A stretch of DNA of 64,000 nt from an uncultured Armatimonadetes bacterium (GTDB taxonomy: Bacteria > Armatimonadota > UBA5829 > DTJY01): assembly GCA_963717145.1 (NCBI GenBank), contig OY970325.1, forward strand, positions 448,001 to 512,000, read 5' to 3'. Of this stretch, positions 33,001 through 42,000 are shown piece by piece (the stretch's first letter is position 1; each line of letters begins with the position of its first letter). The position numbers were made by a program.

Positions 33001-36000
33001 GCCGGAGAAGGTAACACGAAAAGAAGGGCGGAGCACCCATGCGCCCCGCCCCTGTTCGGAATGGTTAATGAGGGATGGTTCATGGTTAATGTGGGGCCGG
33101 TCTCCCGTCAACCATCTCCGGTATCCGGTCTCCGGCATCAACCATTCCCGATATCCGGCATCAACCATCAGCCATCAACCATCAACCATTCCCTTATGCC
33201 GCTATCGTCGCCGCCTCGGTCTCGCTCCAGTTGCCGATCTGACCCTCGCGGTTCACCCAGCGAAGCATGTAGTACACCGTCTTCCCCGCATCATCAGGAG
33301 CATACTCCAGGCTGAACGGGCTCTTGTACGCCACCGCCGCAAGCTCGCCATCGCCCGCGCCGGAGGGCAGTGTGCCGACCGTGCGCCAGATCTCGCAGCC
33401 GATCGCACCGACCGGCCTGCTTCGGCTCACCGTCGAGCCGTTCGTGTTCCGAATGCGGATCACGTGCTTCAGGCGGGCGTTCACATCGATCAGTCCGAGC
33501 GGCTTGTCCACACTCGCTCCCGCCGGCACCTGCGGCGCGGCAGTCTTGATCCCGAGCGCCTCGCGGTCGGCATCAGTCGTGTTCGGGCTGGCATTGATCT
33601 TCTTCACCAGCGCACGGATGACGGTGTCGAACGCCTTGCGCTCCTCATTCTTCGCCGAGCAGTAGCTCTGCGCCGTTGCCTGAGCGGTGTAGTGCTGCGC
33701 CAGGAGGGTGTCCCACTCCGGATGATGGTCCGCGAACGGCACCAGATCACCCACGACCAGTCCGAAGTGCGCGATGTTCGGCTCCAGATAAGCGATAAAC
33801 GTGTCGGCCCAGGCGGTGAAGTCAGCATCCTTGGCCGGCATATAATTGTTACTCATTGTCTTTTGGTTCCTTCCATCAGAAATGATCCGGATTCAGCGGA
33901 AGGACACCGCGACGAACAGCCGGTGGATGGCCCAAGGTCCGGCATGAACCATGAACCATTCCCCATGCCCCATGAACCATCATCCATCAACCATTCCCCG
34001 CATCCCTTCCCGAATTCCGGTTGCAGCCGGTCGCGATAAGATCACCGCCCCGGCCACCATTCACAGCCCACGGCCGATCGTCAACCATGCACTGTTCACT
34101 GCTCACTGTTCACCTGTCCGCGATCACCCCTTCGTCAAGAGCCATATTTGATTACAACACCGATTATCGGAAAACGGATTCTTTGACTATAGGGCCAGAA
34201 CTAATCTTTTTTGCGCATGGCAGTAGGGGAATTTGGCCGTGGCGTTACTCAGTCAGGCGGGGGGGAATTTCGATTAGGCGACTGCTTTATTCAGTTTAGG
34301 CGGGGGGGAATTTCGATTAGGGCACTGCTTTATTCAGTTTAGGCGGGGGGGAATTTCGATTAGGGCACTGCTTTATTCAGTTTAGGCAGGGGGAATTTGG
34401 ATTAGGCCACTGCTTTATTCAGTTTAGGCGGGGGGGAATTTCGATTTGGCCACTGCTTTATTCAGTTTAGGCGGGGGGGAATTTCGATTTGGCCACTGCC
34501 TTATTCAGTTTAGGCAGGGGGGAATCTCGGTTTGGGCACGGGGAAATATGAGCGTGGGCATCGGGAAATGGGCGTCCGGCGGGCGGAGAAAGACCACTCA
34601 GCGCCGGCCTGATCGAGCAGAGGTCGCGCCCCAGTCGAGCAACATCCCGGCCAAACCACAGCAGGGGTGGGGGATCATCGAACAAGGAAGCCCGACCCAT
34701 CGCCGTCCGCCTCGCCCCGACCAAACCCGCCGGCCTATGGAACTGAGGTCAGGAGCCGTGCAAGGCGAGGTGAATCCTATAGGGAAGACCCCGGCGGAAC
34801 CAAGAGGCGACTGTCCATCCTCCCTGTTACACTTGCATAGCCTGCAACTGGCAATAGGATTGGTCGCATGAAGGTTGTTGAGTCCCTTGCATCGAAAGGC
34901 TTTGCTATGGCATACTTGTGAGGATATGCCGTGAAGCTCGGACATGCGTTGATACTGCATGTCCTCGGTTCCGTGTTGTGCAGGTGCGATATGCCTAAGT
35001 TTACCGTAGACACACATCTTTTTCGAGAACTGGGCGAGCTTCTTGTCGGTCGTGATTCCACGGCTCTGGTTGAGCTCGTTAAGAACTCCTATGACGCCGA
35101 TGCCACCCATGTTCAGGTCTATGGCGAGAGTCTTGATACGCCCGAGAATGGCTTCATCATCATTCGCGATGATGGTGTTGGGATGAATTCCAGGCAGTTC
35201 GAGGAAGGATTCCTTCGTGTGGCGTCAAGGATCAAGAGCCATGGCGACCCAAGATCGCCTAGATTCGGGCGGCGATATACTGGCGCCAAAGGCATCGGCA
35301 GGCTGGCTGCTCATAAGCTCGCAAGATACATTGCCATAGAATCGTTTCCATGGACATCCACTGGCGACGATGCTGAACCCATCGATGCCAGAATTGACTG
35401 GGATATAGTTGAGGCGCACCAGAACTTGGACGAGCTGGAAGATTCAGATGCAATAACGCTGGCGCCCCGAGCCAGCGCCGAAGGCTCACAGCGCGGAACG
35501 ACGATCACTTTGTCCAGGCTTCGTCGTCGGTGGACATCTTCTGAGCGCTCACGATTCTTCACCGAGGTGACCAGTTTCACGCCACCTGAGCAACTTGTGA
35601 ACCTACCTGATGGTGTTACCGATGAGGATTTGCTCTTCCTTACACCACGGATATGTGACACCACCAGCAAGGATCCGGGTTTCACGGTTGAACTCCATGG
35701 TGAGCTACAGGCAGGTGAAGACTACTGGGTAGCCCTTGCCCAGACCGCAGACTGGCTCATCGAGATAGACGCTAGCCGCGATCATGATGGTGCTCCTGCA
35801 GGCGCATGCAAGGTACGATACAAGGTTACACCGACGAAGTTGACACGTAAAGACTTACGCAGTGCTCGGTCTCGTTTCTTTGAAATGGACCACCCTTCTG
35901 CTGACGACGGGCCATTCTTCCAAGCCCGAATCCTGATTCGCGAAGGTCATCTGGCGGAACAAGGACTCGACACCGGGTGGTTGACCAAATCCAATGGCGT

Positions 36001-39000: not shown

Positions 39001-42000
39001 TTACTAGGGGAGTTGTTCCAAGACGACTGGCATTTCCGGAGCACATCGGAAGCTGCTCGTATGGCAGCATGGGGTAACAGCCATCGCGAGCGGGTAAGAA
39101 GACTGCTGAACTGGCATCTTGATGCTGTCTGTGGCAGTTCAGGTAGCGCTTGGACAGCCATTAAGAAACATACTTTGAACCAGGACGCGCTTGTGGAGGG
39201 ATCGAATAAGTGATCCTACCTACTCCACCTGAATCCTGTAAGGTCTACACACCTCCTGCACTGGCCGATGCCATAGTTCGTTCCCTAGGTGATGCTCCAG
39301 ACGCTAGATGGCTCGAGCCCAGCGCCGGAGGTGGTGTATTCGTGTCAGCGGTGTCCCAACTGGGAGTGGAGCGTAACCACATCTGTGCCATAGACATCGA
39401 CAAGTGCTGCGGTCCGCATGATGGTCTTGCCATCGTCTTTCGAGGGCAGGATTTCGTGAGATGGTCACTTGACACTACACAGCATTTCGACAGGATAGTC
39501 GGCAATCCCCCTTATATTCGCCTCTGTCGGCTCGAGGAGTCGCTGAAGAACGCGGCATTGCGTGTCACGGAGCCTGATGGCAGTCCTATGCATCTTGGCG
39601 TGAACTACTGGCATGTGTTTGTATGCGCGTGCCTTAAGATCCTCAATCCTGGCGGTTCTCTGGCATTGGTGCTTCCCGCGTCATGGGATTACGCTGACTA
39701 CTCTGCTCCTCTCAGGTGTACGTTGCCCAAGCTCTTCCGAAGCGTTGTAGTCCACAGAAGCTTGCGACCACTGTTCGGCACGGTTAGCGATGGATCAGTC
39801 GTCCTGATCGCCAAGGGATACAGAGAGCAGTCAGAACACTATGCTCGCCATGTGCATGCAGACTTGCCTGCTCTCATCAAGGCGCTTGAGGTGGGAGAAC
39901 ACGATCTGGTAAGTACTGGTTCGCAGACCGAGCAGGAAGATGCTGGTGAGGAGCTTGTCACCCTTGGCGACATCGCTGACATCGTGATCGGAGCCGTCAC
40001 GGGCGATGCGAAGTACTTTCTTCTGACGGAGCAACGGCGCTTGGAGCATAAGCTCCCGGAGAGTTGCTGCAAGCGGATTCTCACTCGTGCCCGCCAGCTT
40101 CGGGGCGGCGAGGTCTCCCTTGATGATTGGAGGCAGCTCAAGGACGGAGGACACCGAGTCTGGCTGTTTTCTCCACCGGACGATCTTCTGGCCAATGATG
40201 CGGTACATGCCTATCTTGAGTTGTCCACAGACAAGGAGGGACCCAACAAGGAAGCGTATTGGCTGCAGAAGCGTGATGAGTGGTATAGAGTTGAACTGCC
40301 ACTGGAGGCGCATGGATTCATGAGTGGGATGCGCAGTACCGGCCCCTGGATGTGTATGAACCGCTCACCCGAGCTTACAGCTTCCAACACGCTCTACATT
40401 GTCAGATTCCGAGAAGATATCACTGAGGGTGAGCGCTATGCCTGGGCCCTATCCATGCTTACGTCTCCAGTCGCCGCACAGTCGGCGCAATCCTGTCGGC
40501 TCTATGCCGATGGGTTGAGGAAGTTCGAGCCAAGCGACCTGAAGAGGCTGAGGTTGCCGAAGCCACTGCGCTCTGAGGGAGCTAGAGGGGCATATGTACA
40601 GGCGGTTTCCCATCTGCTGAGCGATGGGCCTGTTTGGGCACGAGAGATCGCGGATCAGTGGTTCGCCGTGCAAAGCCGCCTGAGTGATCTGGCTCTCTCT
40701 AGGGAAGCGCAGATGGACCGGGTTGCTGAATCAAAGGGCACCTACCAGACGAGACTGCACGAGGATGGCCCGGTCGTTGCGACGGATATTCGTTCCTAGT
40801 CGGGTGTTCCGTAGCTTTCTTCCTTTCGCTCGCATTCCGCTCTCCGTGACTCCCCTCGCTCTTGTCTCCACTTGCCGATCCAGAGCCTGTCCCCGGATCG
40901 TGCGACTGGAAACCGGTCCAGCGATGTTGCGGCCGGGCGGGGTGGCGCGGTACCATGGGTGCGGTTCACCGCCAGGTGATGTCGCGGGTGAGGGATGTTT
41001 CGCCGCCGGGGCAGGTGAGATGCGCCTTGATCCTGAGTACTTGTCCGTCCGGTCGGCTCGGCGTCGGGTAGAACAACTCGAACGCGGTGTATCCATTATC
41101 CACGGCGTGTGACGGCAATTGCCTATGGCCGGGGGGGCCATCCAACCGCATCTCGACTTCTTCCGTTTTCCGACGTGTTCTCCCGGACCGAGGGTGCGTA
41201 TACGGATGCGCGACACATGTGTTCATGCCCATTAGCTCGTTAGACTGCGGGAATCGTAACGGCGCATGGTATGTGCTACCATTGCCGGACGATGGCCAAA
41301 GAAATATTTGTTAGATTAGCCAATCGGCTATTGACTTTTTCGTCGGTGGTGATAGAATATAGCGTTCATACTTGCCTTCCTGGTACGTTACACAGGCGAG
41401 TGGCTTGCGGCGGGCGAAGCCTTCCAGCGTAGATACGAACACAAGGTGAACCCTCCCAGAGAATCCCAACTGCAGTTCGTTTCTTGCACCATCAAACCAT
41501 TAAGGAGGTAGAGGAATGCCGAATCCCGGACAGGAACTGTCAAGCATCGATTTCGAGTCCATGATCGGCGGGCCGCTGATCGCCGTCATTAATGCGCAGG
41601 CGCAGGCTGCCATGTCCACGGTCAACTTCATCAAGGAGGTCGGCTTCAAGAAGCCGGCGGCTGAGGGGGTTGCCGGAGGTGACAGCGAGACCCAGGAGCC
41701 GATCTATGTCACCTTCAAGTATCCCAAGGAGCTGAGCCCATATCAACCCGCCGTGGCGGCGGACCCGGGCAATGGCACCCCAGCTCATCCGGCGCGTGCC
41801 GCTCAACCGGCGGTGCCTGCTGTGGTGGAAACACAGGAGTTGCAGGTGCCAATCCTGACCATGCTCCCCATCCCCTTCATCCGAATCGACCTGGCGACGA
41901 TCGACTTCAATGCGAAGATCAACTCGGTCGAGTATCGCAAGACCGATACCAACCTCAAGGTTGATGCCTCATTGGAGGCAGGCGCCGGCTGGCTGTGGGG

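Follow-up and report, generated by a model that had tools for sequence, protein, structure and literature searches.

The locus described here raises the question of what four abutting genes, encoding an ATPase-histidine kinase fusion, a receiver protein, a protein of an unnamed family, and a DNA methylase, do together in an uncultured Armatimonadetes bacterium, where a genome survey had read them as a restriction-modification-like system gated by a His-Asp phosphorelay. The window, that is, the whole stretch of DNA analyzed, comprises 64,000 nucleotides of contig OY970325.1.

Gene boundaries and predicted products

The ORF listing of the window shows four abutting plus-strand genes at 34991–40799, contained in ORFs at 34931–37288, 37295–38437, 38434–39213, and 39210–40799. 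Thus, the survey was right about the abutting arrangement but not about two boundaries: the start of gene 1 is corrected from 34931 to the ATG at 34991, since homologs begin at residues encoded from there, and gene 3 has 258 residues rather than 259. The database copy of gene 3 is 258 aa long, which makes the ATG at 38437 its start codon, with one base also belonging to the stop codon of gene 2; the overlap between genes 3 and 4 is 4 nt. The longest ORF of gene 1 would begin at a GTG at 34931. The G+C content is 54–56% across the cassette, as compared with 61–62% in the surrounding DNA. The features are as follows.

34991..37288, + strand: gene 1, 765 aa, soluble GHKL-histidine kinase fusion, distant HEF_HK homolog, start ATG 34991
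34991..35560, + strand: gene 1, residues 1 to ~190, N-terminal MutL/MORC-type GHKL ATPase (invariant columns and profile matches)
35351..35980, + strand: gene 1, residues 121–330, poorly conserved stretch (column conservation)
35981..36340, + strand: gene 1, residues 331–450, conserved middle domain (invariant columns and HEF_HK alignment)
36581..37285, + strand: gene 1, residues 531–765, histidine-kinase core (DHp helix with H547-E548, then catalytic domain)
37295..38437, + strand: gene 2, 380 aa, receiver (residues 5–160), then unnamed output domain (163–380)
38437..39213, + strand: gene 3, 258 aa, unnamed family of stand-alone proteins of ~250 aa, always after gene 2
39210..40799, + strand: gene 4, 529 aa, predicted Eco57I-like N6-adenine DNA methyltransferase

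In gene 1, Pfam recognizes HATPase_c_3 at 44–164 (5e-17) and HATPase_c at 679–783 (1.7e-16), both numbered from 34931. Among 25 kinase sequences, which define the invariant columns, ATP-binding motifs I–III of the N-terminal head are invariant (E28, N32, D35; D60, G62, G64; G98, K100, G101, G103). The head matches the BbrUII/HgiDII restriction enzyme of NCBIfam at 7e-24, over profile positions 2–176 of 659 only, and PADLOC REase_II at 3e-15, and is, judging from its sequence, a paraMORC-type GHKL ATPase. PDB chains of MutL, MORC2, and PMS2 also match it (1e-5 to 7e-4), which would suit a DNA repair or chromosome-handling module, in which a MutL-like clamp would detect lesions, mismatches, or topological stress, adenine methylation would serve to tell strands apart or to recognize self, in the manner of Dam-directed mismatch repair, and the phosphorelay would recruit or activate downstream factors. 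We regard such a module as very improbable; the head fits restriction-enzyme models (7e-24) far better than MutL (3.8e-6), and the distribution described below is also against it.

Behind the motifs, mean column conservation falls to 0.42–0.58 at residues 121–330, compared with 0.70–0.91 in the GHKL domain, and this stretch, matching no family and no PDB entry, is a candidate DNA-specificity region. The middle domain carries the motifs G-x-R-V-x-x-E-G-F-R-V-L-P-Y-G, D-W-L, and N-R-E-G-F, which hhalign finds also in HEF_HK proteins, with invariant columns from G336 to L357 and from N415 to F419; PHROG 8137 matches it at 6e-9, and a PDB sequence search gave no match. The catalytic domain of the kinase core has N, G1, F, and G2 boxes, and the gene 1 profile matches the DHp plus CA domains of ZraS at 1.9e-15 over profile positions 531–751. 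H547/E548, N664, N668, N696-T697-G698, and G725/G727/G729/G731 are invariant in all 25 kinases.

The Response_reg match of gene 2 is weak (7e-4, under the Pfam cut-off), but its AlphaFold model (pLDDT 91.6, pTM 0.91) has a receiver fold (Z 12.2, rmsd 2.7 over 124 residues against 3bre_A), and D13, D14, D56, and K134 are invariant across 33 receiver sequences. The survey's kinase, receiver, and methylase assignments and its claim of invariant catalytic residues were thereby borne out. The output domain (~220 aa) has many invariant W, R, and P residues, and C196, H208, C225, and C322 are near-invariant; searches of Pfam, PADLOC, NCBIfam, and further sources found no family for this half. In Foldseek comparisons, full-length regulators of the NarL, RcsB, and FixJ types deviate from the gene 2 model by 12–17 A, whereas isolated receiver domains deviate by 3.5–4.5 A; the regulator match therefore appears confined to the receiver part.

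The family of gene 3 has 567 representatives at E<=0.001, exactly the figure given by the survey, and the best 150 are 231–294 aa long. The protein has zero matches in Pfam, NCBIfam, PADLOC, and PHROGs. Its model is confident (pLDDT 86.6, pTM 0.86) and, as modeled, matches no solved fold, with no Foldseek match in the PDB at E<=0.001 and best VIA Z values of 3.8 and 3.9. T73, S123, P150, G151, H155, P174, R175, P183, E193, and W199 are invariant. Gene 4 matches Pfam Eco57I (6e-10) and PADLOC MTase_II (4e-49), with other MTase_II models of PADLOC covering residues 248–446; its translation shows an AdoMet motif (35–43), NPPY (99–102), and a C-terminal target-recognition part, in this order.

Conservation, methylase exchange, and spread

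We found 39 loci in a genome scan seeded with gene 3 and 80 loci, including 68 distinct ones, in a metagenome scan seeded with gene 2; these two new samples reproduced the survey's four-gene unit of fixed order and strand. Where a genome locus has room, the order kinase-receiver-gene 3 is kept in 37 of 38 cases, and nearly all of the 68 distinct metagenome loci keep it too. By a scripted count of the latter, gene 1 is present in 47 of 48 and gene 3 in 53 of 55; in the locus listing, L116, the one locus scored as lacking gene 1, proves to have it, and L095, one of the two scored as lacking gene 3, likewise has that gene. No fifth gene recurs beside the cassette among the 39 genome loci, and thus there is no conserved nuclease gene.

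A methylase adjoins the cassette, on either side, in 36 of 39 genome loci, which upholds the claimed fixed link; in the metagenome loci it was seen in 39 and absent with room in 1 (7 not assignable). Some clades have it downstream and others upstream, the upstream enzymes being only 24–29% identical to gene 4, and its position changes 6 times on the receiver tree as compared with 22 times with shuffled labels. Such swaps of methylase position and type amount to the kind of module exchange that defence systems typically show.

One natural protein of 722 aa joins gene 3 and the methylase in frame (40% identity to gene 3, 41% to gene 4). Together with the overlap of genes 3 and 4 in the window, it favors a signal-controlled epigenetic module, in which the kinase would sense the state of DNA or nucleotides, and the receiver and gene 3 would control methylase activity or transcription, so that the phosphorelay switches host methylation with no killing or cutting. 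The methylase is the sole enzyme with a recognizable DNA-directed activity, and a nuclease was found neither in the four proteins nor as a recurring neighbor. However, the fusion comes from just one cluster, on one contig, and a single indel could have made it, given the 4-nt overlap. Moreover, the methylase precedes gene 1, at the opposite end of the operon, in 15 of the 39 genome loci, and adjacency to gene 3 is thus not required. The output domain of gene 2 has no DNA-binding family match, and patchy spread, broken copies (L024, L037, L013), and methylase swaps are more in keeping with a selfish or defensive module than with a housekeeping regulator. We consider epigenetic switching unlikely, while ranking it first among the alternatives.

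The patchy, mobile distribution described by the survey was confirmed. The cassette occurs in 2 of the 401 genomes of a phylum sample, the window's own included, and in none of 10 of the same family, and its hosts include Planctomycetota, Latescibacterota, Chloroflexota, Actinomycetota, Myxococcota, Gemmatimonadota, Acidobacteriota, and others; two plasmids carry it. It is therefore a horizontally mobile unit, moving between distant phyla. Such sporadic occurrence speaks against a repair module, as do the plasmid carriage and low-G+C island, which are unlike a core repair pathway, and the lack of any recurring MutS-, MutH-, or Vsr-like partner among neighbors of the genome loci.

The same linkage and mobility would also suit a selfish addiction module with no immune role, in which the methylase is the antidote and genes 1–3 deliver a delayed poison when methylation lapses, so that the host retains the cassette. 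Such behavior is known from restriction-modification systems, as discussed in PMC8011034. This reading and the defensive one do not exclude each other and are thus not separable by sequence. Against addiction, genes 1–3 persist intact with no adjoining methylase in one genome locus (L007), a duplicate pair (L032/L033), and a metagenome locus (L074), and we judge it improbable, though less so than repair.

Relationship to known systems

The closest relatives are the HEF_HK/Response_reg_2 elements, which are two-component-like, linked to restriction-modification, and predicted by computation only (Bellieny-Rabelo et al. 2021, PMC8011034); parts of that article report the linkage to methylase and receiver for 644 regions. 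In three loci inspected here, HEF_HK proteins are flanked by a C5 methylase and a receiver protein. The survey had called the cassette distinct in sequence from these elements, which does not hold, since its kinase is a full-length HEF_HK homolog (hhalign 99.9%, E 2.5e-33, 681 columns), sharing HATPase_c_3, the conserved middle domain, a coiled linker, the DHp histidine, and HATPase_c; a plain gene 1 profile also finds HEF_HK proteins (hmmsearch E 1e-13 to 3e-27). These matches indicate a branch of the HEF_HK family missed by PF19191, as the survey had allowed. PF19191 has no match in the window's own genome, as claimed, and for PF19192 the claimed absence holds for gene 2 and its relatives, the proteins searched.

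In both systems the kinase is soluble, a receiver protein comes after it, and a DNA methylase lies within the same operon. However, gene 1 is ~240 aa shorter (765 aa versus 998–1057 aa), and the 380-aa gene 2 has another C-terminal half than the 563–630-aa receiver proteins of the sister family, with which hhalign aligns just 52 receiver columns at 2% probability. Gene 3 has no counterpart there, the methylase is of the N6-adenine Eco57I type instead of the C5-cytosine type, and the cassette has no Vsr gene. The cassette differs from that family only in the output domain of the receiver, in gene 3, and in the class of its methylase. Passages of PMC8011034 state that Vsr repair endonucleases frequently accompany the sister family, a point for repair, and propose a regulatory role over restriction-modification systems, a point for epigenetic control, which is also favored by the portrayal, in part of another article, of CapK/CapS as DNA-sensing GHKL kinases that solely regulate immune operons (PMC13373217).

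According to sections of Iyer, Abhiman and Aravind 2008 (PMC2292703), the prokaryotic MORC/paraMORC ATPases of restriction-modification systems share with the cassette an N-terminal GHKL head whose ATP motifs are intact, a sporadic and laterally mobile spread, and DNA methylase linkage; nucleases, helicases, or TIR domains are part of paraMORCs or lie next to them, whereas gene 1 ends in a histidine kinase, and a search of that paper turned up no mention of receiver, two-component, or phosphorelay. The type II restriction enzymes BbrUII/HgiDII (NF050001) are the best-scoring named relatives of the head, but the remainder of the enzyme has no counterpart in genes 1–3. Pgl/BREX type 2 comprises the Ser/Thr kinase PglW, the methylase PglX, and PglZ, and is a methylation-based defence with no obvious nuclease. 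A protein kinase and the lack of an obvious nuclease recur in the cassette, for which methylation-based defence is proposed, but PADLOC PglX matches gene 4 marginally (0.0064), and no other Pgl/BREX model matched. A precedent for phosphorelay-driven defence is Detocs, as described in part of bioRxiv 10.1101/2023.01.24.525353. The likeness is one of concept, a histidine kinase and a receiver-coupled effector forming an immune pathway. Reportedly, Detocs lacks both a methylase and a GHKL or MORC sensor head, and its effector is a nucleosidase. Genes 2 and 3 match none of the PADLOC models, in a release that may not include those for Detocs.

A proposed reading as methylation-keyed defence

The methylase link behind the survey's restriction-modification-like reading stands; the "restriction" half is presumed, with neither a nuclease domain nor a recurring nuclease gene found. 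Pfam, PADLOC, NCBIfam, PHROG, and further searches recognize no nuclease domain in the four proteins, as the survey had noted, and no other effector domain, which weighs against defence. The loci keeping genes 1–3 without the methylase are awkward for a lethal restriction activity, one conserved sensor would have to read marks as unlike as N6-adenine and C5-cytosine, and no fifth gene recurs. The cassette was not found on the viral contigs or phage records searched, giving no sign of a phage-borne arms race. The genome loci are mostly flanked by metabolic or envelope genes of ordinary kinds; in ~6 of 39, defence-type genes are among the nearest two ORFs on either side, a raw count with no baseline. 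The defence or mobile neighbors of some loci are Wadjet JetD (L034), type I HsdR (L021, L023), AAA_21 (L016, L019), and a reverse transcriptase with a protease (L019). On a Rhizobium plasmid, a UvrD helicase and a superinfection immunity protein lie nearby, and a gene annotated as a GIY-YIG nuclease starts 13 nt past gene 3.

In favor of defence are the ancestry of the sensor, with its head nearest to BbrUII/HgiDII and the whole protein homologous to HEF_HK, the intact catalytic residues of both ATPase modules and the receiver, the obligate gene linkage, module exchange, mobility, and the defence or mobile neighbors of some loci. We give about an even chance to a methylation-keyed defence with restriction-modification logic, in which the sensor would report through a His-Asp phosphorelay to an effector rather than cut DNA itself. 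In this defence, the gene 4 methylase would mark the host's own DNA, and a gene 1 dimer would clamp and inspect DNA through its GHKL head and variable region. Contact with unmarked DNA would turn on autophosphorylation at H547, and the phosphate would move to D56 of gene 2. Phosphorylated gene 2 would then free its output domain and, with the gene 3 protein, halt the invader or the infected cell; our guess is that in this last step a domain of a new kind may attack nucleic acid.

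Gene layout and recurrence of the cassette

The four abutting cassette genes, spanning 34991–40799 in total, are listed below with their coordinates in the window.

Genes of the cassette
34931–37288, plus strand: gene 1, from the ORF listing in its longest form, start moved to ATG 34991; GHKL ATPase–histidine kinase fusion
37295–38437, plus strand: gene 2, from the ORF listing; receiver protein
38434–39213, plus strand: ORF of gene 3, start moved to ATG 38437; 258-aa unnamed protein
39210–40799, plus strand: gene 4, from the ORF listing; Eco57I-like N6-adenine DNA methylase

For gene 1, 24 homologs begin at residues encoded from ATG 34991, and the sequence AGGTG lies just 5' of that codon. 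The database copy of gene 3 contains 258 aa, which places its start at ATG 38437; this codon and the stop codon of gene 2 have one base in common, and 4 nt are shared between genes 3 and 4. The G+C content of the cassette is 54–56%, compared with 61–62% on either flank. No tRNA gene was detected within the window and no direct repeats were found flanking the cassette as insertion marks, and a search for the insertion borders by synteny returned short repeats only, the DNA of 20 relatives being too distant.

Repetitive elements occur on both sides of the cassette. Some 460 nt ahead of gene 1, a non-coding stretch holds a 43-nt tandem repeat (34255–34529, 6.4 copies, 94% matches). Farther upstream, a minus-strand ORF (33194–33856, 220 aa) without a Pfam family is bracketed by inverted-orientation heptamer arrays of the CATCAAC and CATGAAC types, which recur at many sites in this genome and its relatives; for this stretch (33058–33998), a copy of 70% DNA identity is present in the same genome, about 12 kb past the window end. 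A short palindromic element at 45075–45192, of which many copies of 88–98% identity occur elsewhere in the same genome and in one relative, looks like a REP-type repeat.

The survey's finding that the four genes form a conserved unit was examined with two samples other than its own, consisting of genomes retrieved with gene 3 as the seed (one genome per species; 39 loci from many phyla) and metagenomes retrieved with gene 2 as the seed (80 loci, representing 68 distinct groups at 95% identity). In 37 genome loci, genes 1 and 2 were located by tblastn directly upstream of gene 3 on the same strand. The other two are L029, which begins inside gene 3 and thus lacks room, and L013, which has 1.8 kb of room yet carries just a truncated gene 3 and the methylase gene. 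The methylase gene adjoins in 36 of the 39 loci, being downstream on the same strand in 19, upstream on the same strand in 14, downstream on the opposite strand in 2, and upstream on the opposite strand in 1; it is missing from the adjacent positions in L007 and L032/L033. The last pair are two identical copies of genes 1–3 on different contigs of one Haliangium assembly, neither with an adjacent methylase gene. All-against-all clustering of 2,891 ORFs from the 39 loci gave just four recurrent gene families, every further cluster sitting inside one of the four cassette genes in another frame or strand.

Comparable results were obtained for the metagenome loci with room, among which a script placed gene 1 upstream in 47/48 and gene 3 downstream in 53/55. 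Coordinate artefacts of stop-to-stop ORFs account for the single miss of gene 1 (L116) and for one of the two misses of gene 3 (L095); the other (L073) has just 480 nt of room. The methylase gene was seen in 39 metagenome loci; one locus (L074) lacks it despite room on either flank, and no call was made in seven. The order and strand of genes 1–3 are repeated in 37 of the 38 genome loci with room and in nearly all of the 68 distinct metagenome loci, confirming the observation of a four-gene unit; the four cassette genes are inherited and transferred together.

The cassette is widespread in environmental bacteria. Within the phylum of the window, a gene 2 profile detected it in 2 of 401 genomes, its own genome counted, and in none of the 10 genomes from the same family. 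This distribution is a poor fit to a repair module, a reading of the cassette that we consider very improbable. No cassette was found on viral contigs or in phage records, and two of 72,556 plasmid records, one from Clavibacter and one from Rhizobium, carry it. On the Clavibacter californiensis plasmid pCCa (L135, 9145–9726), the gene after the receiver gene encodes 193 aa unmatched by the gene 3 profile (E ≤ 0.01), and may be a replaced third gene. The copy on the Rhizobium sp. TH2 plasmid pTH2c (L136, 3775–10783) is distant, with the methylase gene divergent upstream; a gene annotated as a GIY-YIG nuclease, in which Pfam finds just DUF4357, starts 13 nt after gene 3, and a UvrD helicase gene and a superinfection immunity gene lie in the neighbourhood. 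Broken copies in L024 and L037 and a split gene 2 in L005 could reflect decay or assembly errors.

To trace the history of the methylase arrangement, FastTree was run on 113 receiver sequences, giving a tree with midpoint rooting alone and without bootstrap; of the 120 loci (the window, 39 from genomes, and 80 from metagenomes), 7 were omitted for lack of a 330-aa receiver match. The arrangement needs 6 changes on this tree (minimum, 3), compared with a mean of 22.1 after shuffling, and none of 200 shuffles was as low as 6. By these values, the methylase has stayed with the cassette as a stable partner, with only a few replacements or relocations.

Kinase, receiver, and kinship with HEF_HK elements

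The gene 1 product contains an N-terminal HATPase_c_3 and a C-terminal HATPase_c domain (Pfam). Its head comes closest to the BbrUII/HgiDII restriction-enzyme model, over the first 176 of 659 profile positions (7e-24), and a type II restriction-enzyme model of PADLOC also matches it (3e-15); MutL, PMS2, and MORC2 match it more weakly than do these restriction-enzyme models. In a PDB profile search, the kinase core hit ZraS across its DHp and catalytic domains (1.9e-15). In an alignment of 25 full-length sequences, numbered from ATG 34991, the ATP-binding motifs I–III of the head are invariant (E28, N32, D35, D60, G62, G64, G98, K100, G101, and G103), as are the DHp histidine with its following acidic residue (H547-E548) and the kinase boxes (H547, N664/N668, N696-T697-G698 of the G1 box, W709-F710, and G725 to G731), the residue before N696 being E or Q where D is usual. 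Per-column conservation is 0.70–0.91 in the head and only 0.42–0.58 in residues 121–330, recovers in a middle domain (331–450) that has two invariant motifs, drops within a linker (451–540), and is higher again in the kinase core.

For gene 2, the Response_reg score is below the Pfam cut-off. A confident structural model predicted from 33 sequences (pLDDT 91.6, pTM 0.91) superposes through residues 5–160 on receiver domains with Z scores of 10–12, among them 3bre_A (Z 12.2, rmsd 2.7, 124 residues). No variation was seen at D13, D14, D56, and K134, and strand 4 is followed by T or S in 32 of the 33 rows. The invariance of the catalytic residues claimed for kinase and receiver is accordingly borne out in 25 gene 1 and 33 gene 2 sequences; selection keeps both ATPase modules, the histidine that accepts phosphate, and the aspartate of the receiver intact. 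The remaining 220 residues of gene 2, its output domain, are well conserved; they gave no match in Pfam, NCBIfam, PADLOC, or PHROGs, no usable match in the ESM Atlas, and nothing below E 0.06 in a PDB profile search, and comparison of 33 relatives with Pfam yielded no consistent family for this half. The fold-search lists were filled by receiver-domain matches and cover the receiver half.

HEF_HK proteins are described in PMC8011034, which reports no experiment, as soluble and kinase-like, with a new DHp domain (HEF_HK) between HATPase_c_3 and HATPase_c; they adjoin receiver-like Response_reg_2 proteins and C5 methylases. The survey had reported no match to the HEF_HK model PF19191 in the genome of the window, and this held when 11 candidates were scored; gene 1 itself does not match PF19191 at E ≤ 0.1, nor do gene 2 and 33 relatives match PF19192 (Response_reg_2). 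The cassette proteins were also compared directly with those of three loci of the same phylum sample that are positive for PF19191. Two of these consist of a C5 methylase, a 998- or 1010-aa kinase, and a 563- or 595-aa receiver-like protein in this order; the third (L126) has a 1057-aa kinase followed by a 630-aa protein without a Pfam match, its contig stopping 141 nt upstream of the kinase gene, which puts a methylase out of reach. In one HEF_HK locus (L125), a NOV_C protein (PD-(D/E)xK-type) is encoded at 3877–4713 on the minus strand, just upstream of the C5 methylase.

Gene 1 aligned end to end with the three PF19191-positive kinases (hhalign 99.9%, E 2.5e-33, 681 columns, 24% identity), including the motifs of the middle domain, and a plain gene 1 profile finds HEF_HK kinases by hmmsearch at 1e-13 to 3e-27. 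This full-length homology places the cassette inside the published HEF_HK superfamily, with which it shares the kinase domain plan (HATPase_c_3, DHp histidine plus acidic residue, HATPase_c) and a methylase in the same cluster. In contrast, the output side and the methylase class differ (N6-adenine here, C5 there). With three-row profiles, and hence in a weak test, gene 2 aligned with the Response_reg_2 proteins around strand 3 only (hhalign 2%) and gene 3 with none of the HEF_HK-locus proteins. The proposed distinctness from HEF_HK/Response_reg_2 systems thus stands for the output side and the methylase class and has to be given up for the kinase. Within the collection of papers searched, no experimental study of the cassette or of the HEF_HK family was found, and tables S2/S3 of PMC8011034 might list closer members. 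This kind of cassette is known but untouched by experiment, and two modules of the present branch are without named relatives.

Other named systems were set aside. The methylase alone matches MADS, through mad2 and weakly, the modules of that system being a P-loop ATPase and Toprim according to PMC13662399. CapK/CapS, according to PMC13373217, has another type of GHKL kinase with STAS partners and is kept as a conceptual rival, and Tiamat, which has a NOV_C nuclease, forms a GHL clade of its own in bioRxiv 10.64898/2026.09.30.754977.

Gene 3, the methylase, and the search for a nuclease

Gene 3 belongs to no family in Pfam (also with 30 relatives), NCBIfam, PADLOC, or PHROGs. Its profile again collects 567 representatives at 50% identity clustering, of which the best 150 are all 231–294 aa long; as reported before, neither this protein nor gene 2 has a model in PADLOC or NCBIfam. 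The confident gene 3 model predicted from 30 sequences (pLDDT 86.6, pTM 0.86) gave no Foldseek match in the PDB at E ≤ 0.001, and the best VIA-align Z scores were 3.8 among 48,161 chains and 3.9 among Foldseek's top 997 chains. Eight of the 50 VIA-align rows listed are lipid-transfer or START-like (helix-grip) proteins with Z scores of 2.9–3.7. The succession of strands and helices in the model would be compatible with such a fold, which we regard as just a lead. Among the invariant residues are T73, S123, H155, R175, E193, and W199. Complex prediction for the gene 2 and gene 3 products scored 0.31 against a mark of 0.32 and was used neither for nor against an interaction.

A single ESM Atlas match (rank 24, score 0.87, family in 15% of members) had pointed to DUF2290 (PF10053); this lead drew no support, with Pfam finding the family in none of 30 gene 3 relatives and hhalign against one DUF2290 protein giving 0.2%. 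The sole DUF2290 gene in 301 genomes of the phylum sample (L040, 1447–3531, minus strand) immediately follows a gene for a UvrD-like helicase, an arrangement known as the Helicase+DUF2290 defence pair.

Gene 4 encodes an Eco57I-like N6-adenine DNA methylase (Eco57I, 6e-10 in Pfam; MTase_II, 4e-49 in PADLOC), with an AdoMet motif N-terminal of NPPY in the translation and a C-terminal half to which further type II methylase models of PADLOC align with their equivalent part. It is the only recognisable DNA enzyme of the cassette. Genes 1–3 match no nuclease family in Pfam, NCBIfam, PADLOC, PHROGs, or PDB profile searches, so that the reported absence of a recognised nuclease domain was reproduced in five kinds of search, and no nuclease gene recurs beside the cassette in the 39 genome loci. 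Three stretches of genes 1–3 without an assigned fold could hide a nuclease.

One fused form of gene 3 was found, the 722-aa metagenome protein P0154 on a 22-kb contig, in which a gene 3 homolog (40% identity) continues in-frame into the methylase (41% over 472 residues); either the fusion is genuine or a stop codon has been lost, and we take it as a weak hint. This single natural fusion and the absence of a nuclease both favour a regulatory or epigenetic switch, an explanation that we judge unlikely.

Proposed working and its meaning

By analogy with GHKL clamps and two-component systems in general, the gene 1 head would be expected to dimerise on ATP, its DHp histidine to become phosphorylated within that dimer, and the receiver aspartate D56 to take over the phosphate. 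For the cassette, we propose that the gene 1 head and the variable region would inspect DNA, that unmethylated DNA would be the trigger, and that phosphorylated gene 2 together with gene 3 would act as the effector. We give about an even chance to the cassette being such a methylation-keyed defence system that signals by phosphorelay, a reading in line with PMC2292703 and bioRxiv 10.64898/2026.09.30.754977, where paraMORCs are viewed as reading unmodified DNA. An addiction module, inseparable from defence by sequence, seems improbable to us. The weakest point of the defence reading is the effector chemistry, with no nuclease recognised and none recurring nearby. The survey's description of a restriction-modification-like system gated by a phosphorelay is retained for the methylase and for the intact kinase and receiver residues; for its restriction half, no endonuclease was recognised in genes 1–3.

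A bolder and rather doubtful proposal is that coupling of a MORC-type DNA clamp to a histidine kinase would turn methylation state into a phosphorylation signal, that the gene 2 output domain (220 aa) and gene 3 (258 aa), both without detectable named relatives, would constitute a new class of immune effector, and that the sensor could be re-paired with N6-adenine and C5-cytosine methylases.

MORC/paraMORC ATPases are thought to sense unmodified DNA, and the cassette, if it works as proposed, would give a direct and easily assayed report of this sensing, namely phosphotransfer. Two-component signalling would then be tied to methylation-based self/non-self discrimination, and two widespread unnamed modules, of which gene 3 alone has 567 representatives at 50% identity, would join the candidate immune effectors. 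Moreover, the link to HEF_HK merges the two groups, and an experiment on either branch would therefore inform both.
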